DNA from: Pseudovirgaria hyperparasitica
Lineage: Eukaryota
DNA: 64,000 nt
NCBI GenBank assembly: GCA_010093815.1
Contig: ML996574.1
Strand: one strand, 5' to 3'
Made by a program: the position numbers and the translations under genes
Shown: positions 9,106 through 50,721 of the stretch, one piece after another
How positions within the stretch are numbered: position 1 is the stretch's first letter
Layout of the letters: each line of letters starts with the position of its first letter
The notes under the pieces: model-generated
Seen by the model: the letters and a program-made list of their open reading frames with translations, nothing else
Database searches by the model: none
Told to the model about the DNA's origin: nothing

Positions 9106-11715
9106 ATGCCAACCAGTTCGATTCGCAATTCCTCGACCTCCACCTCGTCCCCCGTCTCATCTACTCCGCGCTCCTTCCTCTCCCGCCTTGCGCCCTCGTT
9201 TGCCTCCAAGACTCGCTCCTCCGCCGAATTCGATATCCAGCTAGACGATCCACATCGCCAATATGCCCCCGGTGACGCCGTGACAGGGACTGTGACCCTG
9301 AAGGTCTTGAAGCCATTGCGCATAACACATCTGGTCATATCGCTACATGGCTATGTGCAGGTGTACAAAAATCCGAATACCCCGGGGGACGGCTACCGGG
9401 CCCACAACCCGTCGATAGGCTCCGGCAAGGGTCCGAAGAAGGCGGGATACTACGGGAATGGGTTCGCGACCCTGTTTGAGGAAGAGACTGTCCTGTGTGG
9501 CGATGGCAGCATGCAAAAGGGCATCTTCAAGTTCCAATTCTCACTCGACTTTCCCTCCAAAACCTTGCCCAGCAGTATCGATGTAGGTGCTTGTCGCCAT
9601 TTATATTCTGGGAAACTGTGGTTGCTGATGCTTGGCTAGTTCGAACGTGGGACCATATCATACATGCTGACTGCAACCCTCACACGACCAACAAGCATAT
9701 CGCCGACCAGCACGAGGGAGCTGAGGGTATTTCTGATTGAGAACATTGATATTGGGCCCATCAGCGAGCCGAAGCCGCGAAAGATATCCCTGGAACCGCG
9801 AGCTGCCAAGTCGAAACCAAGGCAGCCTAAGAAAAGACCCCCGGCCGCCAAAGCACCAGAGACTGGAGACGCAGCATCCACTTCAAAGGATAGTCGTGTG
9901 GGCGAGTTGAATATTGGTGCGAAAGAAGACCTGGAGTCGCCTCGCAGTCCGGCGGCAAGCGATGTCAGTTTTGAGACCCAGCCAAGCACGACAACAGGCT
10001 CAGGGGAAGATCCTGGCACTTCATCTGGCTCCGGGTGGCAGGGCAGTGGGGAGTTGAAGAGTGCAGGACTGACACCTATCAAGAAGCAACCAATCACTGC
10101 GACAATCACCTTGCTCAAAGCTGGATTCTTGCGCGGCGATACAATACAACTCACAGTGAACGTGACGCACACAAAATATATGAAGAGTCTCCACGGGATA
10201 ATCGTGACGCTCTATCGGCAAGCTCGGGTCGACATGCATCCAGCGCTCCCAGTCATCACTACAAAGGACGGCAAGATGAAGGCTGAAGAATACTTTCCGC
10301 GTTCAAAGACTGGACTTGGTGGCCTGTCATTGTCGAATTCCGGATCAACTCACGTGTTTCGCAAAGACTTGTCGCAGTCGTTTGCGCCCTTGATCATTGA
10401 CCCCAAGACTCTGACTGCTGATGTAAAGGCGTCTGTCCGGGTGCCCGAGGAAGCCTTTCCCTCGATAACGAATGTTCCCGGTGCTATGATCACGTTCAAA
10501 TACTACGTCGAGGTTGTCGTTGATCTACAGGCAAAACTGGCGAGCCTGGGGCGCTTTCTTCCAAACTCGGGAATGATGAATATTCCAAATGGTTACGAGG
10601 ACAATTCTGGTATCCGGCCCGAGGTCAACGGACCTGGCATGTTCTCTGCTTGGGGTGGGAATTTTATTGATACCACCCAGGTCCGGAGAGACAAGAGCGT
10701 CGTGGCCTGTGTGTTTGGGATCATTGTCGGCACAAGGGACAGCGAAAGGAGGAAGAATAAGGGGAAACAGCCCACTGTTCAGCCTCCTGTAGTGGACGGA
10801 CCACAAGCTCAACCTGTTCAGAATGGCAACGGGTATGAGCAGGGAGAGTATCACCACTATGATGAGTCTCAATATTACGACTACGGGCATCCCCCGGACC
10901 GAAACATCGATCATCACGATCACTATTACGGGTTCGAGAATCAGTATGACGGGCACGAGAATCATCAGTATGATGCGCGATATGGTTACTACCCCGAGCA
11001 CCAATACGACATGTCGCATCCTCACGGGTATCGTCTTCCACATCTTGCTGTACAAGACGAGTCCCACCTTACAGACAAGGAGCGGATACGCAGAGCTGAG
11101 CAACGGCTGCTGCCTTCTGAACCGCCAGCGGAAGGTAACGGTGAATCTGCAGCTTGTGCACACGCTCCATCGGCACCGCTTCTGACGGAAGACGAAGACC
11201 TCCTTTTTGCGCCTGCCCCTCGTACAAGGTCGCACGCAAACAGTAATGCCTCCACTATCCCACCTCCCTCTCCCTCGTTTCTCAGCGCAGGTCTATCCGC
11301 TCCACCCGTGCCGTCGGCACCCCTTCCATCACCACGTCCTTTGCGGGCCCCTGCGCCAGTGTATACGTCGTCACCCGCACATGATGAGGCGTCCTCGTCA
11401 CGTGTGCTCGCCGCAGGTCCGGCTGCATCAGACGACAAGCAAGAGCTCCAGCGCCGGCGACTACAAGCCGAGCAGAGCGCTCCCCCGGCTTTCGACCCGA
11501 ACTCGTCCAACGGTCCCGACGCCTCCGCCATGACGGAGGAGGACGAACAGGACGCGATTCCCACTGCACCTGATCTCGCAGACTTGCAGCTCGGGGACGA
11601 TGCGCATGATACCGGACTACCGTATGGCGAAGGAGCATCGTCACACCACGATCCACGGGCTCATGTGCAGACTACTCCGCTGCTGCCTGCCTACAGGGAG
11701 ACACGGGCTTCTTGA
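9106..11715 (+). CDS. palF: pH-response arrestin-like protein PalF/Rim8
   Basis: FDIQLDDPHRQY..GD.V.G, LPSSID|FERGTISYMLTATLTRPT across intron 9583-9639, EEYFPRSKTGLGGLSLS, DDKQELQRRRL, C-terminal LPAY. Confidence 0.93.
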
Positions 11716-12169: not shown

Positions 12170-12841
12170 AGTATTAGATAGGTATACGATAGGGCAAGAG
12201 ATGATGATAATAATGATAATGATAATGCCATGGTAGATTATTTATTTTTAGGTGCCCTTATTCTTTCTTACGCATGCCTACCTACTTACCTATCTACCTA
12301 CCTACCTAACTAACTAACTAACTAAGTTTTAAGAGACTATTATAATTATTAAGAAATTTAAGAGCTATAGTAGAAGAGCTTTAGATAAGTAAATAAGGTC
12401 GACCGCGACGCAGTGTATACAAGGACATGAACCCGCGACCGTCCAAGCGTCGCGCATAGTGCCACTGAGGGCAGTGGCGGTCTTTTTTAAAAATCGGGCA
12501 CTTTGTTACGGCTACGGCAGTAGCAAACAACATGTATAATTAATGTAGGCAGTAGCTACGCACCGGTCGGGTGTATATATACAACCGACCGTACACGTAC
12601 ATAGAAAATGGCATGCTTTTATGACCAATATTACAACTTGAACTGTCAAGGAACTTAATAAAGAGCTTTAAGTAGTTTATTAAACTAATAAAAATAGAAA
12701 TTCTAATAGCTAGAAGAGCTTTAAATAAATAATAGCTCTTAGAGATATAGAGATTCTAATAGCTAGAAGAGCTTAAAGTAATTTATTAATCTAATAGCTA
12801 TAGAAGTTTTAATAGCTAGAAGAGCTTTAAATAAGTATTTA
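12170..12841. mobile_element. AT-rich RIP-like repeat relic at the left edge of the island, including a 53-bp tandem array
   Basis: TpA-rich sequence; (ATA)n, (CTAC)n and (CTAA)n runs; AAGAGC core at 12661, 12714, 12767 and 12820 (53-bp period). Confidence 0.7.
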
Positions 12842-13040
12842 TGTTAAGGGTGAACCCTGGGTATTCTTGACGTAGGCGCACCTACGCCTGCGCTATCCCT
12901 GTTCTACTAAGCGAGGCTAAGCGAGCCCCTTCTTACTAGCGCGCACTCCGCCCTTTACCTTAAGGAAGCCGAGTAGACTTCTACTCCCTCCCTTATCGAA
13001 CTTACTATATCCTATAAATACTCTTACGTCTGTGTATACG

Positions 13041-14275
13041 TGCCGCCAAGTTCAATTCAGAAGAGGGACCAGACCTTGCCTTGTAAGCGCATCACACGAT
13101 GGCGAGGGGCGTACCCCTCGCCATTCTAACTCTGGCACAGCTTCGCATTACAAGCCTTGAAGGATGAACGTAATTGTTAGCCGTATCGTCGCAAGTGGGG
13201 CACTTATCTACACTTTATCATCTGCGAGGATCGCGCATTTGTATACGGTGGGCAGTCGGTCGACTTACTACATAGGATCCACGAGCACCATGCGGTACTA
13301 GGCCGTCTATAACTGAAAGGGGATACTGGCCGAGAGCCACACTATGCCAAGTGGAGTGAAGCACAGAGTAAACCTGGATTTACGCATTTCTGGGTCGTCA
13401 TTGCAGTCCAGAAGCTCACAGGATACCACGAAATCGATAGACGCGCCTTGAATGTACTCGAGCATCTAACTATCCTATATGTACAAGGCTACCAACAAAC
13501 ATACCTTGATAAAGACTGGCCAGTTGACATGTCCCGTATCGCGCCATGCGGTCTAAACGTCAAAATCGCCTTAGGGCAGAATCTCTGGCCTACTAATTTT
13601 TCGCATATCCCGAAAGAGGCCGACAACGCAAAGTTTCAAGAATGGAAAAGAAACGCAGCTCAAGGTGGGAAGAGCACCGCAGAGAGGAAACGGCAGGCCA
13701 TTGCAGAAAGGTTCGGATATCACGAACCGGTGAAGCTTGCCGTTAAGTCTGGGCACAACAAGCATACGAAAGTAATGAACCATGCAAGCCTCCGGCTTAT
13801 ATTCTTTACTGCTGAGCATGAAGATCTTGCCAACGAAGAGTTCATTGATGTGTTCTTTGAGACTACAAACCAGGGTGAAGTGCACCCGAATAGCATCGCC
13901 CCAAATGCTATAGTAGGCACGGATATCGCTGCTCGTCTAGCGATAAGACTCCCGGATCGAATCCATGATGACGGCACTACGGAAGCTCGATACATCAAAG
14001 ACAGTAACAGCGGCGAAGCATTTACAAAAACGTGTAATTCTCTCGCAGATATACTGACGGGAGAAGGTGACCCGAGTAAGTATATCGAAGAGAAGGTTCC
14101 ACGTCGCAGGGTCCCGGCAAACAGACTATTACAAGTCGGGGATTCAACCTACACTAACGATGATGGAAATCTTATACCCAAGGTGGTACAGAATAAGAAG
14201 GGCGAAGGTAGAAAGAGAGATAATCTCGTGCTCGCGAGGAAGGAGGAAAAAGAAGCATCTAAGAGTAACACATAG
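13041..14275 (+). pseudogene. GIY-YIG-type endonuclease-domain gene, 5' truncated, two in-frame stops (copy 1)
   Basis: Intron 13083-13140 (GTAAGC...CTAAC...CAG); frame from 13142 reads KWGTYLHFIICEDRAFVYGGQSVDLLHRIHEH...HY...LNVLE...GLNV; stops TAG 13178 and TAA 13310. Confidence 0.72.
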
Positions 14276-14689
14276 ATTGCAATTGAAACGGCTTCATTAT
14301 GGGAAGGCGCGTATGTGTTTATCTAATGAAGATGCTTTTAAGGCTACAGAATCTACAGTATATATGCACTAGTCTAACATTTTCGCCACCTTTCTACTTG
14401 TAACCAATTAATACCTTGTGTACGGGCGACTCGGCCACGACCATCAAGGCATTGTTCGCTATTGTGACGTGCTAGATAATATGATTATCCTATAAGTTAT
14501 ATAAGAAATATCTATCTAGTAATATATCTATTAAGTTAATTAATAGTTCGAAGAAGAGTTGGTCATGAAGCATATTATTTACTATCTAGTCTACGGTTAG
14601 TTATCTTATATTAACCGACCGCCTAGTAGCTATCATCTATATTATATATACAGAGTCCTTGTAGTAATCTCAATCTAGGTCACGACCTT

Positions 14690-16520
14690 CGCGAGCAAAT
14701 AACAGAGCCCCTTCCTTGCAAGCAACTTCGATCCTGAGTATAGGAATGTTGCCGCTCGGTATATTTGGATGTGAACTTCTTCAAAGAGCAAAACCAAGGT
14801 CTTCCAAAGGCTGAGAATGAAGGTCCAGCGACCAGTACGCACCTATTCGAGGTGTTGGACCAGCCTAAGTATGGCTCCGAACTCTTTGTCACCTTACGGT
14901 ATCAGTACGTCTGGGTGGACGGTGATTGGGAATTTGAGACCCGTCACCACGTTCTCCAGCATTCAATTGAGCCGTGACAATATCATTACTGGAGATGATG
15001 GAATTAGCATAGGATACAAAATCGTTGACAATGACAGTTGCGAACAATACACACACATTTATTCCCATCTATACTGGAACTGGTCAGAGCCGAGCAGGCC
15101 CATGCGGAAGAAGTGAGGGAAGATACTATATTCAACTACCAAGCGCCTTCAATACATCTTCTTCAAATCGCCTACAACGGCCACTTTTGCGGATACAATG
15201 TCATGGTTGATCAGGATTTGAGTCCTGAACATGCACAGCTGAAGGCTCTTCTCAGCGGGCCATGCAAGCTTTACATCCTTAATCTCGGGTTCGAGTTGGA
15301 CAAAGAACTCCAGAAGATCGATATGGAGCTTGGCCAACGCTTCAACCCCCTTGATGCTTGGTACCCCAATGGAGAAACGCTTGAGGCTGTAGCAATGCAG
15401 CATACGATTCCCGAAAACAAATGGCCCAAGTATGTACGGGGCCTATAGCCCATCGTGGAACAACAGATTTGCCAACAATACATTTTTATGGGTTTCGGCT
15501 TTGCAGGAGGCTCAGCTGGAAAAACATCAAATCTGAATACGCCGCGGTCCAGCTCTCGATCATCAAACTCTCGGGAGACAGCCACACTTCCTACCTGGGT
15601 ATCTTGTACCCGTCCAAAACCAATCTCCGATACCTACCCAGTGAACATCTCCGTCTGAAGATGAATCCGGACGAGGTATATCCCGAGAATGATTGGGTAT
15701 GTGAGGTTTTGGCAATTCCACCAACATTTGTTCCAGTCGCGGCTGTTGCTATTAAACTTATCCGTCCCCCGAATGAACCCGATATAGATGACTTGGCGCT
15801 GCATGAACTACTCACTATAGATCTGGACCAAGCGCCAAAGACGGTTGACGATGTTTTTGCAACTGTCGAGCGCTCTATCCAGTCTAATGCATCGTTGCAA
15901 AAAGCGTCAATCGAGACCAGAGTAGACGTTAGCGATGGTGTCGGCCAGCAACGCATGCAAAACGGTCCAGAAGTTCACGTTGCGACTTTCACGTTCGAAG
16001 GAAATGTTTTTTTCACGCTAGATCCTGATATCGAGCGTCTTATCCTGGGAAAGGATTCGCATAACCTCCGCCCATGAGACGTCTACGACACGCTGACGGA
16101 AGATAAGCGCCTTCTCGACGAAATGCTTATCAAGGTTCATGGTAAACTAAGCAAAGAGCAAGCAGACGTTCTAACGCAAAGTCTAAAGGTGCCAGCAGGC
16201 CATGTCGTCATCCAGGACTATGTTGGTGCAGGAAAGACATTCCTGTTTCAGATGCTCATGGCTGCCACTCTTGAGATTTCCCGAAAGGTACGGCGCAGCA
16301 GTCCCAGCCCATCCACCGAAGCAACGAGTCCCAAACAGAGCATGGGAAGCAAAAGCAACACCGTATGGTGAGGCGCGAACATCAGCACCTCTACGTTGCA
16401 CCTACCAATGCCTTGGTGGACGACGCCATCAAGTCGACTTACGAGTTCATCGGTTTCCTATCCAGGGGGCACAGAATCAAGCGAGAACCCTGTGTTATCC
16501 GCCTGCTCAACCCTAATTAC
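14690..16520 (+). pseudogene. Upf1/NAM7/DNA2-like SF1 helicase, N-terminal half, with frameshifts and stops
   Basis: LSKEQ (Q motif), VIQDYVGAGKT (Walker A, 16225-16239), LYVAPTNALVD (motif Ia), VIRLL (Ib-like); 5' limit is approximate. Confidence 0.75.
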
Positions 16521-16578
16521 AGATTGCCTTCTTCTTTTACTAACGATCTCTATAATACCAAATGGTATTCCTACTTCA

Positions 16579-17412
16579 CTAAGAGTGTGCTCCGCTTTCC
16601 AATTCCATCTCTGGTGGAAGCGAAAATGGAACGCGATGAATGCCATAACTACAGTCCTCAAGCTGCGCCAGCTCCTTAGGATTATTATAAATACGCGGTA
16701 GAAGTAGCCGGGAGAACGATTTGAACTTTACTTGGTGCTTCACAGCAGCAGCCTCGAATATTGGAGGATAAAATCCAGTACAACCCCAATCGATTAGCCA
16801 AACCTGGTTGCGCGTGTCCAAAATAAGATTTCGAGGGCTAAGATCTCCATGAACGAGGACGAAGTAGGGACACTGTAGTGGTAGAGTATCCGGTAAGGCC
16901 TGCTTAAAATATTTACTTAGGCAGAGTTTCCATTTAATCCACTTCTGGAATATTTCTCTCGTCGGAAACGGTCCTGCGCCATAGTCACTAAACACTATGC
17001 CACAAGATGCTCCTCCACCAATAACGCCTGGATGGTCATTATGTATGGATTGAAGCTGGTTAATCATAGCCGCAACCTGGTCAACCACACTGTCCTGAAG
17101 ACCGGAATTGAGTTCGTCCCAACATGTATCCAGGGAGACACCGTCTATGTAGTCCATGACTATGTAGCCTTCGACTCCAGAATCAGAATATGACGAAGGT
17201 TGATTAATATCAAAGTAACGGTAAACACGAGGTAGTCTCACGTCCGGAAACTTCGTCGTGACATATCTCATCGTCTCGCCTTCTGAGGCTAGAACAGTGG
17301 GCCCAAACTTCATCACCAGCGTTTTAGACAGTCGTACAACTTTCAAACCCCCAAGTGAGTGAAGGACTGGAGCATCTTGGCCATATGCCATGAGTTCCTC
17401 CTTTGGCATCAA
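16579..17412 (-). CDS. Aminoglycoside phosphotransferase (APH)/choline-kinase-like protein
   Basis: Intact 277-aa ORF: VVRLS..LVMK.G, EGETMRYV, IVMDYIDG, HGDLSPRN, IDWG; true start uncertain. Confidence 0.85.
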   Translation of the reverse strand: MMPKEELMAYGQDAPVLHSLGGLKVVRLSKTLVMKFGPTVLASEGETMRYVTTKFPDVRLPRVYRYFDINQPSSYSDSGVEGYIVMDYIDGVSLDTCWDELNSGLQDSVVDQVAAMINQLQSIHNDHPGVIGGGASCGIVFSDYGAGPFPTREIFQKWIKWKLCLSKYFKQALPDTLPLQCPYFVLVHGDLSPRNLILDTRNQVWLIDWGCTGFYPPIFEAAAVKHQVKFKSFSRLLLPRIYNNPKELAQLEDCSYGIHRVPFSLPPEMELESGAHS

Positions 17413-17899
17413 AGCAATATCAAAAGTTGCGCCATCTAGCGGGCATAGAGTCGAACGACTTCGAGCGGCCGGCTATGTTCTTTAGCGTTTTTTTTTTATC
17501 TCAAGCGGTGATCGGGTACTCACATCGACATAGGGAACCCAGGGATCTGGCATTATGCTCGGGCGAGGACTGGACATTGCTCACAGGTATAGAAGTGATA
17601 GGAAACTATGACATGGACCGAATTAAATGGAGGCGTTACTACCCACGAGGCAGCTGGCTAGCGAAGCCTTCGGCCCTTCGCCAGGACTTGACAAGGCTGT
17701 ACACCGAAGTATTAGCGAGCGGCAAAACCGCACAGACCTTGAATCGCCTTCTCGACTACCAGTGCCATGCACTGCGAAGTAGATCTTACGGTATTTCAAA
17801 TATCTGAGATTGCCTAGACGTTACCTCTGCATTTCCTCTGAGGGAATATGAGGCACAGAGATTGCCTGTGCGACGAACCCTCCCCACTTCGATTGGTAG

Positions 17900-18640
17900 A
17901 TACCCAATTAGGTATCTTATACCAGAGTTCCTATAAATTATATATAGCTATCCTATTAGAATAGATAGTAAGTAGGTACTTCTAATAAATATAATAGAAC
18001 AAAAGAATCCTTCGGAAGTACTTAGAAGTACTTAGAAGTGCTATATCTTTTTTAATGTATATTGTCAGGCACGTGGCCTGCTAGTTGATTCTACATGTGT
18101 GCAGCAGTCGTATATAAGCAGTGTGCTCCACCCTTGAAGCAGTAGCTTCAAGATTCGGTCCTTTTGGTGTAGTTGGTTGGTGCGTGGAGCCCGCCTTCTT
18201 ACATATATTATTTATTAGAAGTAGATATATCTATTACAGTTTCTATATATTTATAGTTAGAGTCTATCTATATCTAGCTTAGGCGGTAGTATTATATTCT
18301 ATAGCTTATATATTTAGTAGTAAGGGTAAGATTAAGCATAGACCTATCTTTATTCTATTTATACTTTCTCTAAGTAATTTACTCTATATATATAAGAAGA
18401 TATAGAAAGTTATAGTACTATATATATAGTTCCCTTACTTAGAGTTCTTCTTTTATAATAGTTAGACCTCTCTACTATCTATAGTAGAGGTTAAAGTTAC
18501 TAAGGAGAATATATTATTCTAGTATTATAGTACTCTTAAGTATATTATCTAGTATTATAGTACTCTTAAGTATATTATCTAGTATAAGTAATTACTATTA
18601 GTTATAGATATTATAGATATAAAGAGAATCTATACGTAAG
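17900..18640. mobile_element. AT-rich RIP-like relic with a 30-bp tandem repeat (about 18510-18587)
   Basis: Extreme TpA enrichment; TATATTATCTAGTATTATAGTACTCTTAAG repeated about 2.5 times. Confidence 0.7.
18063..18203 (+). mobile_element. Solo LTR (141 bp) with 5-bp target-site duplication
   Basis: TGTCAG...CTTACA termini, internal TATATAAG, TATAT on both sides (18058-18062 and 18204-18208). Confidence 0.75.
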
Positions 18641-18801: not shown

Positions 18802-19578
18802 TTATCCGTAGCTACTACAAGGCATTAGTGATAGATGCGGAATCAACGATTCTAAAAATATACCTTCTAGCTTTATGTCTTGGAGCGCTTCACTGATAGT
18901 CTCATAATCCTGACTCCAACATTTCAGGATCGTATTACGAAGGGCGGGAATAACTGTCACATCCGGGAAGCGGCTTGCCTCGAAATAGGCACTTATTTGG
19001 TCGTCACTCACACTCGCATAAGGCTTCGATCCGGTCATCAACTCATACACCGTAGAGCCAAGGGCGAACAGCTCAGTCTTCGCGGAGATGTCTGTCCCAG
19101 GAAGTTCATGACTAGTCTCATAACAGACAAGCGGTGGGCACCCATCAATCGACGAACCAGCAAAGTCGCCTAGCTTGACGTTCAGATTATGGTCGAGGAA
19201 TACGTTATTACACGAGATGTCGCCATGGAGCACTCCTCTTGAGTGGACATATTGCACAGCATCGAAGATCTGCTCCGCCCATCGAAGCTTCAAGTGAAGC
19301 GGAATCCGCGTCTGTCGTCCGATATATTGCCGGATGGATGTTTCTCGTGCAAATTGTAGGACAATCGCATTGTCCAGCACGCCAAAATAGCGAACGATGC
19401 CTTGATGGTCGTGGCCGAGTCGCTCGTAGACAAGCTTCTCCCGGTCTAAAAAATGCGAATCCCAGGGTTGGCAGAACTTTATGACGGCATCGAGACGTGC
19501 AACGATCGCTGTTGTTCCGGCGCCAACTAAGTCTCCGCCACCGAGACCCCTTGGCCATTGTATATCACACTGTTGCAT
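18802..19578 (-). CDS. Small Ser/Thr protein kinase-like protein
   Basis: VGAGTTAIV, VIKF, REKLVYERLG, HGDISCNNVFLD, KLGDFAGS; a 3' intron after DIKLE is possible. Confidence 0.85.
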   Translation of the reverse strand: MQQCDIQWPRGLGGGDLVGAGTTAIVARLDAVIKFCQPWDSHFLDREKLVYERLGHDHQGIVRYFGVLDNAIVLQFARETSIRQYIGRQTRIPLHLKLRWAEQIFDAVQYVHSRGVLHGDISCNNVFLDHNLNVKLGDFAGSSIDGCPPLVCYETSHELPGTDISAKTELFALGSTVYELMTGSKPYASVSDDQISAYFEASRFPDVTVIPALRNTILKCWSQDYETISEALQDIKLEGIFLESLIPHLSLMPCSSYG

Positions 19579-19891
19579 TTTCTTCCAACAAGGGTTTCAC
19601 GTAAGATGGATAGGTGAAGGAGGATGGTATCGGTAAATTGTGACAGTGTGCTTGTGGGAGGGAGAGGGGTCGCAAGGAGCGGGAAGTACCCTAGAACCCA
19701 ACAATCTTGGCGTTTCCCATTTTACGCGTGTATCCTTACCTTTATACAAGAGACTACATATTAGATTACTTATATGGACTTGTAGAGGATAATAAGATAT
19801 ACTAGATCCTAAATACTTTTTAAGCTATAAAATCTCTCATTTAGTCTTCTTATATCGACCAAGTTCACGGACGCAAGGCAATCACCAAGAC

Positions 19892-20504
19892 TTAAAGGAC
19901 TTGAGAAGCCGTTTCTCTTTCAATCACCAAACTGTTTATCAGTCTGCGATCCTGCGTACCTTTCTTATGCTGACAACATCTTGGTACTGCAAGAACTTTC
20001 TTCCCCGCATAATCCCGTGGGTTCACAGGAAACAGGAGCACTTCGTTCGCGTACGTCTCTCCATCAGCAAATGGACCTTCATCTTCCTCAAGCTCGACAA
20101 TGTTTATTACGAGTACTTCTGGGTCGAGATCGCCGGCAGGAACAAGATGGTCAAACGTCACCCCATAGTAATCGATATACCTGAGCGCCACCGTAGATCA
20201 GCCTCAAGCTCCTGAACAAGGTGCTTCCACCCACTCTAGCGGTTTTACCCAAGCTAGGTACTCGTCTCGTACTATCGCAATATCGTCGGTTGCTCCATAC
20301 AGAGTCTGGTGTGTAAGGTTTGCTAGCGCTAAACCCCCTTGCTGTGGGAAAGGCGTAATTTTTTCCCACGAAGAGCCCGGTAGCAGCTTTTGTATGGATA
20401 CAAGGACCTTGGATCCGGATTCTCAAAGGCTTTGCAGCGGGGGGCGGATGTAACGGGTGTTGAGGATGGTTGACGCAAGGATGGATATAGAGCTGAAGTG
20501 ACAT
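19892..20504 (-). pseudogene. Fungal hypothetical protein with one frameshift
   Basis: MSLQLYIHPC...RIQGP, frameshift near 20405 to LVSIQKLLP...VRDEYLAWV, intron 20234-20181, then YIDYYGVTFDHLVP...GKKVLAVPRCCQ. Confidence 0.6.
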
Positions 20505-20522
20505 TATGTAGTTTAACTCGAC

Positions 20523-20900
20523 AGTCAGGCTATACCCGTACCACGCACTTTAGTAATTGAACAGATCCAAATATACTTAGGAAGGGCGTTTCTATATTTA
20601 CTTTTAGTACTATTTACTACTTCTATTACTATTATCTCTAATCACTAACCTTTTCTTCTATTTTTTAACTTATTAGCTTCTAGTTTAATAGACTTAGTAT
20701 AAGAGGCCGGGCACTACGTACTAACTTGCTTATAAAGGACTGAACCACAGGTGAGCCACGTGCCGAGCACGTGACTTCTTACAAATAGTTAGTCAGTTAG
20801 TCTAGGAGTAATCTACTTTCTATCTATTATATTAATTATTTTCTTAGCGAGTTTCTTATAAGGCTAGAAACTATAGTTATAAGTAGAGAAGGGGAGGGAG
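20523..20900. mobile_element. Degenerate LTR-like relic plus AT-rich RIP-like DNA
   Basis: Minus strand TGTAAGAAG..GGCACGTGGC..TATAAG..GTGCGTGG shares motifs with the 18063 solo LTR; no TSD visible. Confidence 0.45.
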
Positions 20901-21110
20901 AGTTACTATGCTAAAAAGGGGGTGTTCTTATAGAGGGGGAGGAGAGTTGGATTTAGGGGGGCGGAATTCCAGGGAGGCGGATTTCTTATCTATGATCTGT
21001 TTCCTCTATTTCATCTATTTATATATGCTTCTGTACCATGTTACTTATCTATGCTACATAGGTCCTATACAACAGCCAAGCAAAGCAAAACTAAGAGGCA
21101 TTCAAATGGA

Positions 21111-22455
21111 TCAAAGCTCCGCCAGCCCAGCGATCTGCTGCATATCAAACTCCACCACAGCCCCCGCGCACTTCCGCCCATAGTTTAGCACAGAGAGCGA
21201 ATGACGGCCGCGAAAAGCCCCACTGCGCAATAAATGCGACATATTCCCGACAACAACGAGGCCGTACTGCGTGCGCGTCGGCGCAACGATGATCCGGCTG
21301 TGCTCCTTCATGAAGCCTGGCCGGTCGAATGCGACGATGGTGGTGGCCTGGAGGCGCGGGTCTAGACGCTGGAATGTCTTGCTGGCGAGGGCTTTGTGTG
21401 CAGCGTAGGGGCTGATATGCAGGATGTCGGCGGCGCTGATGCCGGTGCTAAAGCCGGCCGTGGTACTGCGGAGGAGGGCTTTGGCAATGGAGAGCTCGAT
21501 GCGGAGGGAGTCGGTGTTGAGCAGGCTTTTGCTAACGAGTGTCGCGGGGGATGTGGCGGCGTTGATGAAGACGACGTTGTGCGGGCTCGGCAGGTTGAAT
21601 ACGTGCTGAAGGAGGGCGACGTAGCATGGGCCGTTGGGGTCCTTGGGAGGGTCACGCCGGCCAGATGCTTTCATGAGGCCGCCGTAGCAGGCTTTACTGA
21701 TGGGTTTCACAATGGCTTCGCAGGAGCGTTCGGAGGTAAGGAGTTGAGAGTATGCGAAACCGCAGTCCATGAGGCGGGCCATCATCGAGTGGGCTGCGTT
21801 TTCGGCGAAGTTTGCGTTGTCGCGCGTTTGCTTGGTTGAGACGCCTGTCTGGTGCTTGTCGCCGACCATGTAGACAAAGGGCTGCCACTGCGGCGTGAAC
21901 TAGTTCGCATAGATGCCCATCTGGTCTACTTCGGAGAGCTTGTACCCTTCATCGAGGAATATCATGACGGGGAAGATTGTTTCGGCAACTTTTGGCGTGT
22001 TCATGACGTACGGTGTGCCGGCGAGGAACTGGGCGCGGCTCTTGATTTCCATGTATAGGAGGGCGCATCTGTGGTTAAACTCTGCCCAGGAGGCAGGTGT
22101 GGCGGTACCAGCTAGGATTTGATTGCGCAAGGCGCAAAGTCTTTCGTGCCTGGTACCGAATTCAGGAGCCTGCCATTCGAATCGGGGTGGTCCATTTGGA
22201 CAAAGTCCAAGGCTTCAAGAGCGATAAAGTCAATGGTATGCTTGATCATCTTGGCCCGGCATTCCATTGTCTTTAAGCCCAAGGGCCCGCTCTGGCTGTC
22301 TTGGAACGCCTTCTCGACCAGATGCCCGCCTTCGCCGAGCAGATAGCGGTACGCCATATCACCGCTAAGTGCAGCCATTGCGAATGAAGCCATTATTGCC
22401 GACCTAGATGCCTTTTGTGCCTCCAGTCTTTTCTCGAATTTCTGAAATAGCTAAT
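21111..22455 (-). pseudogene. Upf1/NAM7-like SF1 helicase, C-terminal half, degenerate
   Basis: AQFLAGTP, IFLDEG (II), VGDKHQT (III), SMMARL, ISKACYGG, ISPYAAH, GFM..SRIIVAPTRTQYGLVVVGN (VI); one frameshift, one stop, motif V partly deleted. Confidence 0.8.
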
Positions 22456-22606
22456 CTATGGCGATAGAATTCCTTGTCCTTCAGCGCCTTGTCCAAACGC
22501 CGCTCGAGATCTACTATAGTTAACTGAGCAGCCTCCACTTCTCTGGAGACAGCATTCAAATTTAATGCAAGTTCCACCTCTCTGCTCGTGATGAGCCTTA
22601 GTTAGA

Positions 22607-23371
22607 TTACGGTCGCTGCCATCGAGTAATAGCTTGATGGCATACCAGTTCAAGGCTGTAAGACTGAGGAAAGATTTGTCTTGCCCGATTCTTCCAGTCT
22701 ACATGTTTCGAAGGTCTGTCGAAAAGTTTGATATATTCCCAGTGCTCAGGATACCAACCGGCATATTCCCAATCAAGCAAGCCTGTAATCTTCCCATTCT
22801 TTACTAAAATATTATGCTGTGAGAGGTCGCAATGTGAAAAAACGATGCGATGATCAGTGCGAAGTTGTTGGTGTAATGCTTCGAGCACGGGACTCGGGGT
22901 CGTCTGAACAAGGTCACAGTAGAATAGGTTAAAGCTTGCTTCGTCCAAAAAAGGTCCTCCGCTATAATCAGAGTATTGACGTAAATCTCGTGCGGATCCG
23001 TCTGAGCAGGATCCAATACGTCTATTAGTCGATGGAGCAGATCGCATTGTCTCAAGGATTTCTCGTAACTGATTACAAATATGATCTTTCTCGCATTCTG
23101 TCATACTCGGCCATACAAGGTCAAGTCTATCGCCATGAATGTACTCCATCCATAAGCTAGTTTCTCCTTCCCCAGAATCTTTCTGTGCATTATATACCTG
23201 GGGAACAGGTAGGTTAATGTGTGCTGCAAATTCGAGAGCATACTTTTCATCTAATTTAAGTCGTCTGCCCTTCTTTAAAACGACAGATCCAGAATAAAGC
23301 GTAACGGTCCGATCTTGTATCGCGTGGAGTATCGAACTCTCTAGAATTGGATTAGATCTGCCACATTCCAT
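22607..23371 (-). CDS. APH/choline-kinase-like protein
   Basis: Intact 254-aa ORF: EKYALEF..LPVPQVY, MEYIHG, FSHCDLSQHNILV, LLDWEYAGWYPEHWEY. Confidence 0.88.
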   Translation of the reverse strand: MECGRSNPILESSILHAIQDRTVTLYSGSVVLKKGRRLKLDEKYALEFAAHINLPVPQVYNAQKDSGEGETSLWMEYIHGDRLDLVWPSMTECEKDHICNQLREILETMRSAPSTNRRIGSCSDGSARDLRQYSDYSGGPFLDEASFNLFYCDLVQTTPSPVLEALHQQLRTDHRIVFSHCDLSQHNILVKNGKITGLLDWEYAGWYPEHWEYIKLFDRPSKHVDWKNRARQIFPQSYSLELVCHQAITRWQRP

Positions 23372-23690
23372 AACATTCCTATGACGGACTCACTTTGTCC
23401 GCCCACAGCATCATGTCCTTCATCCTGTGCTAGCGCTAGCATATCTTCAACTCAAATTTCCAAGTTTGCGCCGAAATGCCAAATGAATTGGTCAAGGTTC
23501 TCAAGTCAGGGTCTCTCAACTGACTACATTGCAATTGGGTGGATACATACGAGGGGAGCTTGATTCGCGGATGACGTGAGACGATTACGTTATCAGCGCC
23601 GCTACACTATTTCAGGCAAAACCACCTCTCTGCAACGTGACCTCTGCAAGTGCAGCCCGGTCAAAATACAAGTCAAATTTTACCACTTCG

Positions 23691-23915
23691 TTATTTGAGA
23701 CTGCAGGCCAGGGTGAAGTGCACCCAAATAGCATCGCCCCGAATGCAATAGTAGGCACGGATATTACTACTCATTTAGCTATAAGAATCCCGGATCGAAT
23801 TAATGATGACGGCACTAATACTATGGAGGCTCGATATATTAAGGATAGTAACCGCGGCGAAGCTTTTACGAAAACATATAATTCCCTCGCGGACGTACTA
23901 ATGAGAGAAGGTACT
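23691..23915 (+). pseudogene. Fragment (copy 3) of the GIY-YIG gene, C-terminal region
   Basis: FETAGQGEVHPNSIAPNAIVGTDI...EARYIKDSNRGEAFTKTYNSLADVL closely matches 13857-14065. Confidence 0.85.
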
Positions 23916-24180: not shown

Positions 24181-25130
24181 CGCTTTCTGCGGTCTTCTTC
24201 CCACCATGAGCTGCGTTCTTCTTCCCACCATGAGCTGCGTTCTTCTTCCCACCATGAGCTGCGTTCTTCTTCCCACCGTGAGCTGCGTTCTTCTTCCCAC
24301 CGTGAGCTGCGTTCTTCTTCCCACCGTGAGCTGCGTTCTTCTTCCCACCGTGAGCTGCGTTCTTCTTCCATTCTTGAAACTTGGGGTCGTCGGGCTCTTT
24401 TGGCATGTGCGGGAAATTGGTGGGCCAGATTCTCTGGCCCAAGGCGATTTTGACGTTCAGCCCGCAGGGTGCGATTTCAAAGCTTGTGATGCGAAGCTGT
24501 GCCAGAGTTAGAATGGCGAGGGGTAACACACCATCGTGTGATGCGCTTACAAGGCAAGGTCTGGTCACTCTTCTGAATTGAACTTAGCGGCAATATCCTC
24601 TCTGAAATGCTGTATGATCACATTAGGGTCACATTGACCAGGCAAAATTGACCCGTATCGCTATTGAGCAGGTTGAATTTTGTCATGGCGCTTTTGCATG
24701 CGAGTAAGCATGTACGTATTGACGTCAACTAGCTTAGGTAGCGCTTTGTCTGGCCAAGGCGGGGTACCCAGTGGAATGTGTGGGTTCATGCTTTGATAAT
24801 CGAGAAGGTTGGGATTTGGCTTCACGATACCGTCGATTGATACATCAGCTCTTAACTCTTCGAATGTGTCTTCGTCATCATCGGCATGAATTGCCAGAAG
24901 CTCTGACGTGGTATTTCCGGTTAGGTATTGGTTAACGGTTAGAGAGCTGTTCGTAATCCGATGTTGGTTGATAGTAGAAGACTGGTCGATAGCAAAACCC
25001 GAATTCACATCAGGAGAGCAGGCAGTTGCGGAAAAAGTGGCTGAGTGGAGAGTAGAGGATATATTCGCCGTAGATGTAGCAAAGCTAGACTTGTCTGATT
25101 TCTTGAGCCCTGACCTCGTTCGTCATGGTC
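24181..25130 (-). pseudogene. Fragment (copy 2) of the GIY-YIG gene: N-terminus, same intron, catalytic core deleted
   Basis: AAKFNSEE.PDLAF|FASQALK with intron 24550-24497 matches 13041-13160, then jumps to IAPCGLNVKIALGQ.WPTNF.H.PKE. Confidence 0.8.
24193..24369. repeat. 24-bp minisatellite, 7 full units (KKNAAHGG on the minus strand)
   Basis: TCTTCTTCCCACCRTGAGCTGCGT x7; three A-variant units followed by four G-variant units. Confidence 0.97.
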
Positions 25131-25247: not shown

Positions 25248-26450
25248 CTATTTAACCGTGGGGACACTAGTCCCCTTTAGGAAGTCGTGTCCCTCACTGT
25301 TAAGGGTGAACCCTGGGTATACTATTGGGTCAATGACCCGGAAGTATCCTCCCGGCGGCAACATGTTCCACCCCTCTCCCTCCCCATACCACAATGTGTG
25401 TGGCCAGGCCCCGTCCGCGCCTCCCTCCTCTCCCATCCTTGCGACGTCGAAGGCCTTGAGCGCTATCGACCACACCTTTGTATAGTCCAAGCAACCAGTC
25501 GCCCACTCCTCCACCCTAGATATCTTTCCCTGGTCCTCCATCCCCTCCACCATCGATCTCATCGACGGGAATCTCAACGGCTGATGTGCCCAATGGCACC
25601 AAACCATGTTCGAGTCTTGTGAGAAAAACGCGAACAGGCCAGCTCCATTGGTGAAAACACCATCGGCGAACAGGAAGGTACCGGCGCCGCTGAGTGCGCG
25701 AATCGGCGGAACAATCAGTGGTACTGTTGTGTATGTGACGTGCGTCATGTTGCAGTGCTCTAGGAGCGCAGCACGGAGCTCGGTGTAGGTATGAATGGGA
25801 TCTGGAGCGGTGTAGACTCGGATTGAAGTTTCCCATTCCATCCAGTGTCTGAGCTCAAGGATATTGTCGGATTCCTCGTCCGTCTCCTCCGACTCAGGGG
25901 TGGTAGCCTCCGGAATGGGTAAGGGGCCAGGAACGAAAGGTGCAAACTCAGCTGTGGTGGGCGTTACCGGACGGTTTTCATTTATAGTGAGAGTTGAGAA
26001 GCTAAGCCGGGGTGCCGTGGGAGTATCTGGGGTGTCTGTAGCTTCTTCGGGCTGCGAGACCGGCTGATCTGAGCTCGTGTCTGAGGGCTCTACTCTCTGG
26101 TTTTGGGGTGGATGCTGGGCCCAGATTGTTCTTGCTTCTGCATGTGATATCGCTTGAACTTGTGGGATAGAGTCGAAGTGTGCGCCTGAGGCTTGAAGAA
26201 GAACGAAGAGACGTTGAGCCACCTGTTCAACCTGCATTGCATGCACAAGCCCTGTGGCCCGCAGAAGTGATGCTTGTTGGGTGGCCATATGCCACCGGGT
26301 CTGACGCAAATCAACAGCGTCCACTGCTACACGGGGAAAGGGAGGCGGAAATGATCGAACAGGGGCTCCAGATCTTGAATATCTTGAGGACAAGCCGGTT
26401 AAAGGTACTGCTTGATTGGGAAACTGTCTGAAAGGAAGTTGGCGATCCAT
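25248..26450 (-). CDS. Hypothetical 400-aa protein of unknown function
   Basis: Uninterrupted ORF; Pro/Thr/Glu-rich middle, then a Trp-rich, globular-looking C-terminal half; no recognised motif. Confidence 0.6.
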   Translation of the reverse strand: MDRQLPFRQFPNQAVPLTGLSSRYSRSGAPVRSFPPPFPRVAVDAVDLRQTRWHMATQQASLLRATGLVHAMQVEQVAQRLFVLLQASGAHFDSIPQVQAISHAEARTIWAQHPPQNQRVEPSDTSSDQPVSQPEEATDTPDTPTAPRLSFSTLTINENRPVTPTTAEFAPFVPGPLPIPEATTPESEETDEESDNILELRHWMEWETSIRVYTAPDPIHTYTELRAALLEHCNMTHVTYTTVPLIVPPIRALSGAGTFLFADGVFTNGAGLFAFFSQDSNMVWCHWAHQPLRFPSMRSMVEGMEDQGKISRVEEWATGCLDYTKVWSIALKAFDVARMGEEGGADGAWPHTLWYGEGEGWNMLPPGGYFRVIDPIVYPGFTLNSEGHDFLKGTSVPTVK

Positions 26451-48800: not shown

Positions 48801-49745
48801 AGAGAGGGACACAACTTTATTGATGTTATAATTAGCGAACATTGCTGTAAAGTTGAACTGGCAAGCCTTTAAGCTATCCTTTCGGCTAAAAGGAACCTTT
48901 CTTAGCGTCTTTTGACAGAACTGCCATTGCAGACTTCTCTTTCCTCAATATACCAATCTCACGATACGAAATATGCCGACTGATTTCGTCGACATTGATG
49001 TTCTACTTAGCCCTGACAAGTGTTCTCCGGGCGTGTGGCCACGCTCACACTGATTAGTGCTCACATATTGATTATAGTCGATCTCGCCATATGTTTCTTC
49101 GTGCCAGTGCCCAACACCTGCGAAGGATGAAGACGCAGCGACTATCAACGAGAAAGCAAATTCAAACATAACCTCTCCCCTAATCATTGCAACCTGTCCA
49201 CATGTCATATCCTCTCCCAGATAAAAAAACCTCTCTCCATAGTAACGCACTACAACAAACAGCATAGCGAGCTAGCACACTTCAAGCACGGTACATCATC
49301 TCTCATAGAAATACAGCTCTGGAACGGCTATACTCTTTAGTCTATAACACTTGATTGACACACACGCGTCTTAGTTGAATTTCCCCGTTTTCAAGACCCT
49401 ATCAGTTTCTGTAGATAGATGTGCGTGGACCTAGAGATGCTCGAGGAGGTTTCTCGGAGAGCCCGCAGGTGGTCACTATTATATCTCCTTGGGCGGAGAA
49501 GGATTTTATTAATCTTGAAAGCATAGAAAGTCGATAGCTAGAAGAGCTTCAAGCTATTTATTATACTAATACATATAAATATTATAACGACTAGACGGAT
49601 TCTAGTTGATATAGTAAGTAAGTATATACTAGAAGAATGGACTCTTAGAGTGTGTTCACTTCGCTGACTTGAGGTGCAAGTGGCTACGTGACTATTATGC
49701 ACGTGCATAGTTCAAATCAGCCGCGAAAAAAAATGGAAAAGGAAA

Positions 49746-49827
49746 TGCCAAACAGCGGAATTGAACCGCTGATCTTATCATCTCGTGGTAGTACAAGTGA
49801 TACGCGTTACCACTGCGCCAGTCTGGC
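49746..49827 (-). tRNA. tRNA-Thr(UGU) with a 10-nt intron
   Basis: Acceptor stem GCCAGAC/GTTTGGC, anticodon stem TATCA/TGATA, TGT at 49795-49793, intron 49791-49782, T-arm AGCGG TTCAATT CCGCT, downstream T-run. Confidence 0.93.
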
Positions 49828-50414: not shown

Positions 50415-50721
50415 GAACCATGAAACCGGCACTGCTTGACGTCAAAGTGGAGCATACAACAAGCACAGGAAAACAATGCATTACGCGAGCCTCCGGCTTG
50501 TATTCTCTGCTATTAAGCACGATCATCTCACGAGTGAAGAATTCATCGACGTGCTATTTGAAACAGCAGACAAGGGTGGTGATTCAACATACACCGACGA
50601 CGCGGGCAACTTGATTCTAAAGGTCGCCCAGGAGTCAGAGGATGAGGGGAGAAAGCGGGATAACGATGTACTTGCAATGAACTTTGCGCGAGAACGCTGC
50701 ACTCGCGAAAGAAGGAGGTGA
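50415..50721 (+). pseudogene. Fragment (copy 4) of the GIY-YIG gene, C-terminal region with an internal in-frame deletion
   Basis: ASLRLVF...EEFIDVLFET|GDSTYTDDAGNLI.KV....EGRKRDN matches about 13720-13875 and 14138-14240. Confidence 0.8.

Follow-up and report, generated by a model that had tools for sequence, protein, structure and literature searches.

Positions 13041-14275 on the plus strand of a 64-kb stretch of Pseudovirgaria hyperparasitica DNA (assembly GCA_010093815.1, contig ML996574.1), referred to below as the window, raise the question whether a fungal chromosome here carries a hidden, spliced gene for a GIY-YIG endonuclease. Such a gene was proposed from the letters of the stretch alone (the sequence-only reading). 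To our knowledge, work on GIY-YIG nucleases of fungi deals almost exclusively with mitochondrial homing endonucleases, endonucleases of Penelope-like elements and Slx1. The answer that we consider probable is that the locus, designated copy 1, is a transcribed pseudogene. It would be the most complete of three decayed paralogues and would belong to a sparse family of ascomycete nuclear genes with a GIY-YIG-like domain.

Reading frame, intron and transcript

Read through its stops, copy 1 gives a protein of 381 amino acids (P0001, with X at the stops). The two in-frame stops reported in the sequence-only reading are both present. One is a TAG at 13178-13180 (+), seven codons ahead of the motif G-T-Y, and the other is a TAA at 13310-13312 (+), within an insertion of seven residues relative to a homologue from Lophiostoma macrostomum (P0005). 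At both sites the same letters only were found in two DNA runs (X1 and X2) and in two sets of RNA-like contigs from a second sample (X3 and X4), in all four runs and two samples, and the stops are therefore not assembly errors. The remaining open frame (13313-14275, +) has 320 codons and encodes an uncharacterised C-terminal region, homologous to residues 250-460 of P0005. The gene call of the source annotation (P0002) is the last 248 amino acids of this open reading frame (ORF), from the ATG at 13529, while the ORF of 275 amino acids in the sequence-only reading is by our own count a bacterial-style ORF with a TTG start (13448-14275). Above 13313 a further 61 codons (13130-13312) are in frame before a third stop is met, at 13127-13129 and inside a candidate intron. 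With the intron removed at most 21 further codons are gained, in another frame. The extension of about 100 codons that had been described thus exists but is nearer 80 codons.

The candidate spliceosomal intron (13083-13140, +) is 58 nt long and in phase 2. It has the full fungal consensus, with GTAAGC at the start, the branch sequence CTAAC at 13126-13130 and a CAG 10 nt further on, and it is also found in copy 2. Four sites in the window follow the strict intron pattern against 0.39 expected, and none of 100 shuffles had as many. One of the four is the present site, and another is its counterpart in the paralogous copy 2 (24550-24497). As a pattern, the canonical intron placed ahead of the domain by the sequence-only reading is thereby confirmed. 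The exon ahead of it is a remnant (13041-13082, +) consisting of the last 14 codons, which are common to copy 2, and no ATG is found in it. Similarity to copy 2 starts abruptly at 13041, so that copy 1 is truncated at the 5' end.

The candidate intron of copy 1 holds, at 13101-13122, a perfect 9-bp inverted repeat with a loop of 4 nt. Substitutions and a 4-nt gap break the 5' arm of this hairpin in copy 2. Contigs of X1 join the copy-2 variant of the hairpin to copy-1 sequence, which is probably a path of the assembly graph.

X3 and X4 are not on record as RNA. They are read as RNA-derived because they hold spliced joints that are missing from the DNA runs and leave the intergenic DNA uncovered. 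The joints, of the GT..AG type, are found in two neighbouring genes: at 9583-9639 (+) in an arrestin-like gene and at 17473-17523 (-) in an APH-like gene, in both cases in X3 and X4 and not in X1 or X2. Over copy 1, X3 has a single contig of 1,455 nt (12977-14431) without any other letter or gap, and the contigs of X4 cover 12991-14040; the contigs give neither strand nor expression level. The locus 13041-14275 is transcribed and an unspliced form of the transcript exists. Both sets span 13083-13140 without a joint and retain the intron together with the two stops. No contig spliced at 13083-13140 was found in X3 or X4, in which a minor spliced form could be missed.

The proposal of the sequence-only reading, an intact spliced gene for a complete GIY-YIG enzyme that was only annotated wrongly, has to be judged on these results. 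It agrees with intron signals that are rare by chance, with the transcription of the locus and with the first half of the domain, in which no candidate catalytic residue is missing. However, the stops are found in DNA and in RNA-like contigs alike, exon 1 amounts to 14 shared codons without a start, and the form of the transcript that was seen is unspliced. In our own reading of the sequence, no GT..AG pair removes both stops while retaining the motifs, and the sole alternative acceptor, at the TAG itself, shifts the phase and still leaves no upstream ATG. Given the 5' truncation, the missing start codon, the two stops and the unspliced intron, an intact hidden gene is already largely refuted and we regard it as highly improbable. 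Since copy 1 has no start codon and two nonsense codons in the nuclease domain, no nuclease is made from it.

A wholly dead locus sits less easily with the position of the stops. Both fall within the first 57 of 377 codons, which by our own arithmetic has a chance of 0.023 if stops are placed at random, and the C-terminal frame is open and transcribed; the locus may not be wholly dead. It is conceivable, and in our estimate quite unlikely, that only the nuclease part has died and that the C-terminal ORF of 248-320 codons survives as a functional, expressed protein. The contrast between 320 open codons and two stops in the 57 before them, the transcript, the annotation as P0002 and the purifying selection on the C-terminal region among the paralogues all fit such a survival. 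Yet a recent decay would also leave few disabling changes, and a ribosome would pass about 550 nt of transcript with many stops before the first ATG (13529). Word-index and HMMER searches found no homologue in which the C-terminal region stands alone, and the contigs over it come without strand or level.

The GIY-YIG-like domain

That the locus encodes a GIY-YIG-like domain is supported, with the support confined to the first half, which holds the GxY, YxG, Arg and His positions. The motif series named in the sequence-only reading is present where it was placed and in the right frame, that of the ORF 13313-14275: G-T-Y begins at 13199, the Y of V-Y-G-G-Q-S is at 13244, and R-I-H-E-H, H-Y, the candidate Glu of L-N-V-L-E (13460-13462) and G-L-N follow in order. 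The domain core (13199-13288, +) consists of G-T-Y, V-Y-G-G-Q 12 residues on and R-I-H-E-H. It is matched by Pfam under threshold and aligned in register by hhalign, and its motif residues are invariant against P0005. The second half (13340-13579, +) holds a predicted hydrophobic strand, F-W-V-V-I-A-V, a predicted helix with L-N-V-L-E, and G-L-N-V, with residues kept in P0005.

In the GIY-YIG superfamily, whose fold is a sheet of three strands with helices at its sides, a G-I-Y-like and a Y-I-G-like motif stand 10-13 residues apart on a beta hairpin. The spacing of 12 residues between G-T-Y and V-Y-G-G is kept in P0005, and a hairpin is predicted here in both models, with low confidence. The canonical Arg follows about 10 residues past the second Tyr, in helix 1, and in many members a His is found four residues later. 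In I-TevI these are R27 and H31, a numbering that was checked on the translation of phage T4 locus L002, which we take to be I-TevI. The R and the last H of R-I-H-E-H pair with the canonical Arg and His in hhalign, and both are invariant in P0005.

P0005 is the only full-length relative that was obtained. A HMMER search over 1.84 billion cluster representatives (E≤0.001) found four proteins, three of which are gene models on fragments in the window (P0002, P0003 and P0004). The fourth is the L. macrostomum hypothetical protein K491DRAFT_685585 (P0005, 460 amino acids), matching copy 1 over residues 21-342 with 28% identity (E 1.6e-5 with HMMER, 1e-13 with pairwise BLASTP). Like copy 1 it has, along about 320 residues, a GIY-YIG-like domain followed by a C-terminal domain of unknown kind. 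It differs in being intact, without stops, and in its N-terminal 145 residues, which are unlike both copy 1 and copy 2; it is itself uncharacterised. UniRef labels it a GIY-YIG domain protein in the part of the name that was seen. Invariant between the two are G, Y, Y-x-G-Q, R-I-x-x-H, H-Y, F-W, L-N-x-x-E and L-N-V, and several C-terminal motifs are also kept. The sequence-only reading had called for a search for intact homologues; one was found, and it keeps the first-half residues and the Glu, but it is a single one. Word-index searches (E≤10) with P0001, P0005 and residues 140-275 of P0005 returned the queries themselves only, and of the 229 pattern matches that the family alignment produced in a metagenome scan, none was confirmed. 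The C-terminal region of about 240 amino acids matches no Pfam family and reaches template modelling (TM) scores of about 0.3 only in the ESM Atlas, in agreement with the long unrecognised region that had been described.

PF01541 is the only Pfam family found for P0001 at E≤10 (14.1 bits, E 0.059, residues 23-57, profile positions 2-34), and it also matches P0005 at the cognate residues (12.8 bits, E 0.15). In phage T4, three of eight matches to this family lie under the cut-off (16.5-21.4 bits), as does one of three in E. coli K-12 (17.1 bits). The E. coli locus with 17.1 bits is presumably cho and the other two presumably uvrC and yhbQ.

A profile of the two family sequences (A3) was compared by hhalign with a canonical set of five domains, those of T4 L002, T4 L005 and the three E. 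coli loci. The score was 27.3 (P 4.8e-4, probability 32%), and GxY, YxG, Arg and His were paired in register. All five comparisons with the single canonical sequences gave that same register, with P from 0.0017 to 0.053. None of 200 column shuffles reached 27.3 (mean 11.0, sd 2.0, maximum 19.5), and the reversed profile scored 11.8. In a scan of the window with a small hidden Markov model (HMM) of the five canonical N-terminal halves, the piece 13181-13309 came first among 1,611 six-frame ORF pieces, with E 0.12 against 0.59 for the runner-up.

Models of P0005 point the same way. For residues 140-275, the best match in the ESM Atlas is an Ascomycota cluster of 82 members (TM 0.83). Seven of the ten rows are predicted-structure clusters with PF01541 in 95-100% of the members (TM 0.61-0.70). 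Of the two rows left, one is a cluster in which 20% of the members carry PF01541 and one is a cluster of Penelope-like reverse transcriptases. In a comparison by features, the clusters nearest to P0005 are again unnamed Ascomycota clusters. Because of these clusters a broader, unannotated ascomycete family probably exists.

Several results weigh against the assignment. The PF01541 score of 14.1 bits is below the gathering score of 22.6 bits. No match was found in PHROGs and nothing relevant in NCBIfam, and searches of the PDB sequences with the family profiles gave nothing with A1 and chance rows only with A3 (E≥0.16). Against an alignment of the eight T4 domains alone, hhalign gave no match (Prob 0.08). 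The AlphaFold models are weak, with a predicted local distance difference test (pLDDT) of 32.8 for the full-length protein, and of 61.9 with a predicted TM score (pTM) of 0.63 for the domain only. Foldseek found no GIY-YIG fold for the domain-only model in PDB, VIA-align wide or BFVD. Tests of the second half against canonical halves by hhalign and Smith-Waterman gave nothing significant. In a set of eight comparisons, 12 of 1000 shuffles scored as high as the best one, whose register was moreover another. As there is only one full-length homologue, the conservation of residues rests on two sequences. Of the checks proposed by the sequence-only reading, the profile search yielded the GIY-YIG family as the sole one, under threshold, while AlphaFold with Foldseek gave no fold match.

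The likeness could therefore be a chance match of motifs, in a pseudogene of a family with another fold and function. The sub-threshold Pfam score, the empty searches of PDB, PHROGs and NCBIfam, the domain model that matches no GIY-YIG structure in three libraries and the unalignable Glu and Asn are the grounds for this account. We nevertheless consider it unlikely, since the in-register hhalign match exceeds 200 of 200 shuffles as well as the reversed control, the small HMM ranks the site first of 1,611 pieces and the Atlas neighbours of P0005 are overwhelmingly GIY-YIG. The PF01541 matches of T4 and E. coli, moreover, fall in the same twilight range.

A GIY-YIG-like domain as claimed by the sequence-only reading accordingly holds for its first half, by Pfam below threshold, by hhalign and by the Atlas, and not for the half with Glu and Asn, where no alignment is significant. 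The canonical metal-binding Glu is on the helix after strand 3 (E75 of I-TevI, E76 of UvrC). The Glu of L-N-V-L-E is conserved in both family members and lies on a helix predicted after the hydrophobic strand in the domain-only model; because the second half cannot be aligned with the canonical ones, it is a candidate for the catalytic residue. The canonical Asn lies 12-15 residues past the catalytic Glu (N90 of I-TevI, N88 of UvrC). The Asn of G-L-N is conserved in P0005 but stands at +32 from the Glu, and at +12 both members carry Gln. The proposal that this Asn is the canonical one finds no alignment in its favour, and both the catalytic Glu and the Asn are putative.

Paralogous fragments, flanks and mobility

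Three decayed sets of family fragments were found in the window, to which the copy count is confined. In copy 2b (24331-24592, -) the equivalent of 13041-13161 is joined straight to that of 13538-13682, a clean deletion of 376 nt that removes the whole nuclease domain. Copy 2b then runs into a tandem array of a 24-nt unit (24187-24369, -; 7.6 copies, 98% matches). This array, which lies within copy 2 and underlies the gene model P0003, encodes repeats of eight residues from the C-terminal region. Copy 2a (23679-23912, +) is on the strand opposite to copy 2b and matches residues 238-313 with 76% amino acid and 82% nucleotide identity. Copy 3 (50452-50676, +) joins residues 208-249 to residues 337-369 and has no nuclease domain. 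The gene model P0004 (215 amino acids) fuses copy 3 to a downstream hydrophobin domain (PF06766, E 2.9e-19) and is likely a chimeric gene call. The nuclease domain of P0005 is matched by copy 1 only among the copies in the window. The family had been described as multi-copy, an overstatement for three fragments of which copy 1 alone holds the nuclease domain.

Upstream of copy 2b, in the frame of the exon-1 remnant, an exon of about 176 codons is found (24595-25122, -), interrupted by a TAG and a TGA. This is likely the N-terminal region of the family. It has no Pfam match, no second copy in the window and no counterpart in P0005. The continuation of the copy-2 frame upstream supports an ancestral gene of two exons with a phase-2 intron. 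A homology of exon 1 to P0005 after splicing was rejected, as its score was reached by 395 of 500 and 401 of 1000 shuffles.

When copy 1 is compared with the fragments over 48, 76 and 42 codons, the ratio of nonsynonymous to synonymous divergence (dN/dS) is 0.17, 0.22 and 0.21, respectively, with dS between 0.58 and 1.17. The comparison of copy 3 with residues 337-369 was left out, the synonymous differences being too many to correct. These values denote old paralogues whose evolution, until their decay, was that of protein-coding genes.

The 5' parts of copies 1 and 2 are much more similar. Positions 13041-13161 and 24592-24476 are 91% identical (97% over 13041-13102), whereas in the coding segments next to them 40-47% of the synonymous sites have diverged (dS 0.58-0.74). 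Because the intron should drift like synonymous sites and yet is far more alike, this suggests a recent gene conversion or ectopic exchange confined to the 5' part of the two copies. That exchange may be connected with the clean loss of the nuclease domain from copy 2.

The ancestral protein would have had about 450-500 amino acids, and its gene would have consisted of a poorly conserved N-terminal exon and a second one, separated by one short intron in phase 2. Exon 2 would have encoded a nuclease domain of the GIY-YIG type and then a conserved domain of about 240 amino acids with unknown fold, which, by analogy with modular GIY-YIG enzymes, may supply DNA binding or target choice. Copy 1 would have lost exon 1, save the last 14 codons, at the border of a repeat that resembles the products of repeat-induced point mutation (RIP). 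Intact members of the family are probably modular nucleases of the GIY-YIG type with a private C-terminal domain, an activity that is predicted from sequence.

The RIP-like repeat (12842-13040, strand not assigned) adjoins the point at which copy 1 is truncated. Its TA/AT and (CA+TG)/(AC+GT) indices, of which RIP raises the first and lowers the second, are 2.88 and 0.39, against 0.78 and 1.19 for the whole window. Loose contig ends at 12987 and 13039 lead into sequence outside the window, and 26 nt of the 5' flank match 25298-25323. The 3' flank holds a RIP-like degraded fragment of a kinase gene (14415-14528, +), an inverted piece of the gene at 18802-19596 (-), which lies about 5 kb away and has a protein-kinase Pfam match. 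The two are 82% identical and differ at 21 positions; at 17 of these the fragment has departed from the kinase gene by C>T or G>A, so that RIP-like mutation has acted in the region.

Both stops had been explained as RIP changes of Gln codons. RIP is their putative cause, perhaps as a leakage from the adjacent repeat. This origin cannot be shown, because the CpA context is automatic for CAA>TAA and CAG>TAG and because a TAG can also arise from TGG. In P0005 the first of the two sites is occupied by Arg, and the second falls in a gap. The RIP signature is found only in the flanks (12850-13040 and 14415-14528); in the gene body TA/AT is 0.88-1.0 and (CA+TG)/(AC+GT) is 1.08-1.09, both close to the average of the window. 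Transitions and transversions among the copies number 4:3, 16:14, 33:14, 25:8 and 20:19, and the differences are not dominated by transitions.

Apart from two internal tandem arrays, the repeats of the window are the family fragments and the one kinase fragment, and the family accounts for five of the eight self-matches. This raises the possibility of a selfish or mobile nuclear nuclease gene without reverse transcriptase, locally duplicated and then silenced, which overlaps with the transcribed pseudogene preferred here and adds mobility to it. Besides the share of the family in the repeats, it would account for fragments spread over 37 kb in both orientations, for the RIP-like repeats that flank them and for a patchy taxonomy, with one homologue in 1.84 billion representatives; a dN/dS of about 0.2 is also seen in active element lineages. 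However, the copies share coding pieces only, without terminal repeats, target-site duplications or common flanks, the 28 ORFs scanned include neither a transposase nor a reverse transcriptase, and a dS of 0.6-1.2 denotes old paralogues and no recent burst. We give mobility little credence.

The locus is nuclear and chromosomal, as the sequence-only reading had it, and lies among ordinary eukaryotic genes with spliceosomal introns. Neighbouring ORFs encode a SNF2/RING helicase, an arrestin, an eIF2B-epsilon-like protein, MFS, Arf and C2H2 proteins, a pectate lyase, GH12, ATG27 and EST1. None of the 28 ORFs scanned encodes a reverse transcriptase or transposase, and RVT families are absent at E≤0.001 from these ORFs and from the upstream exon of copy 2. 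The earlier observation of no visible reverse transcriptase is thus borne out for P0001 and for the ORFs that were scanned.

Other features were observed near the copies. An AT-rich tandem repeat of a 53-nt unit (3.3 copies) is found at 12661-12834, upstream of copy 1, and a related stretch at 49499-49612, upstream of copy 3. The two may be the relic of a shared older flank or an unrelated repeat. Between this stretch and copy 3, at 49746-49827 (-), ARAGORN calls a tRNA-like gene with a four-base anticodon left undetermined by the program; it is probably an intron-bearing nuclear tRNA gene to which bacterial settings were applied. An N-terminal piece of an AAA_30 helicase (16078-16368, +) and a C-terminal piece of an AAA_12 helicase (21114-21899, -) lie about 5 kb apart, with two APH-type kinase genes and the protein kinase gene between or around them, and the RNA-like contigs leave 14719-15922 uncovered. 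A helicase gene may have been split by an inversion. A segmental duplication as the origin of the APH genes and helicase pieces was rejected, as a tblastx comparison between 14601-18000 and 19501-23500 gave no match at E≤1e-4.

Known systems and the standing of the family

The GIY-YIG homing endonucleases (I-TevI, the Seg type and those of fungal mitochondria) share with the window gene the GxY, YxG, Arg and His in register and a modular layout, in which a nuclease cartridge is combined with a separate C-terminal region, and they are among the Atlas neighbours of P0005. Such endonucleases are encoded in or beside a self-splicing intron or a homing site of an organelle or phage genome. The window gene, in contrast, is nuclear, has its own spliceosomal intron and does not itself sit in an intron. 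No NUMOD, IENR1 or helix-turn-helix module was found in P0001 with Pfam, the profile of the T4 domains alone gave no match, and no homing site is evident. As it is nuclear, has a spliceosomal intron of its own and lacks NUMOD and IENR1, it is not a classical homing endonuclease.

UvrC and Cho are excision-repair nucleases with the GIY-YIG domain at the N-terminus. The best single-sequence profile match is the E. coli locus taken to be cho (P 0.0017), and by eye the strand followed by a helix, with L-E-H past the third strand, resembles UvrC. The window family differs from them in having no UvrB-binding, Endo V-like or HhH domains and in the Gln at +12 from the Glu. Slx1, like the present family, is a eukaryotic nuclear GIY-YIG protein. 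It is single-copy and conserved and carries a C-terminal zinc finger of the RING/PHD type, whereas the window family is patchy and shows neither a zinc-finger family at E≤10 nor a C-terminal stretch rich in Cys and His. Without the zinc finger it is not Slx1.

Penelope-like elements also have a GIY-YIG domain in repeated nuclear sequence, and one cluster among the Atlas neighbours of P0005 is of that kind. In the available part of the description of their classes (PMC13159263), the endonuclease domain is C-terminal to the reverse transcriptase. The window gene has no reverse transcriptase in P0001 (E≤10) and about 240 residues after the domain, and for lack of a reverse transcriptase it is not a Penelope-like element.

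In the full-text literature searched, fungal GIY-YIG proteins appear as mitochondrial homing endonucleases and in Penelope-like elements only. Mitochondrial or phage-like GIY-YIG genes are mentioned in the text available from 10.1101/843698, PMC4511438 and PMC10512326, and in that of PMC9410150 GIY-YIG occurs in a reference only. The 2006 survey of the superfamily (PMC1564403), in the text obtained, does not name fungi, Neurospora, Aspergillus or Magnaporthe, and has the word fungal once, in the reference list. No description of the present nuclear family was found in the passages retrieved from the full-text literature searched, a scope that lies outside subscription journals and supplements.

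A bolder account would place these genes in an undescribed class: intron-bearing nuclear genes of ascomycetes without reverse transcriptase, combining a nuclease of the GIY-YIG type with a private domain of about 240 amino acids, selfish or duplicative in their spread, patchy among species, duplicated locally and with the nuclease module in particular repeatedly inactivated. The module has been disabled in three ways: copy 1 has stops in it, copy 2 has lost it in the 376-nt deletion, and copy 3 lacks it. This threefold loss, together with a C-terminal frame that is open and transcribed, keeps the selfish-gene account alive, though we put its chances as slim. If true, it would mean a new kind of mobile nuclease gene of the nucleus, or an ongoing domestication of the targeting domain.

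Since the copy in the window is probably dead, its value is that of a pointer and of a correction to the annotation. The gene call of 248 amino acids (P0002) is the tail of a probable pseudogene, and P0003 and P0004 are artefacts on fragments, the latter fused to a hydrophobin. The window locus, the Lophiostoma homologue and the nearby Ascomycota clusters of the Atlas together point to a further, uncharacterised nuclear family.

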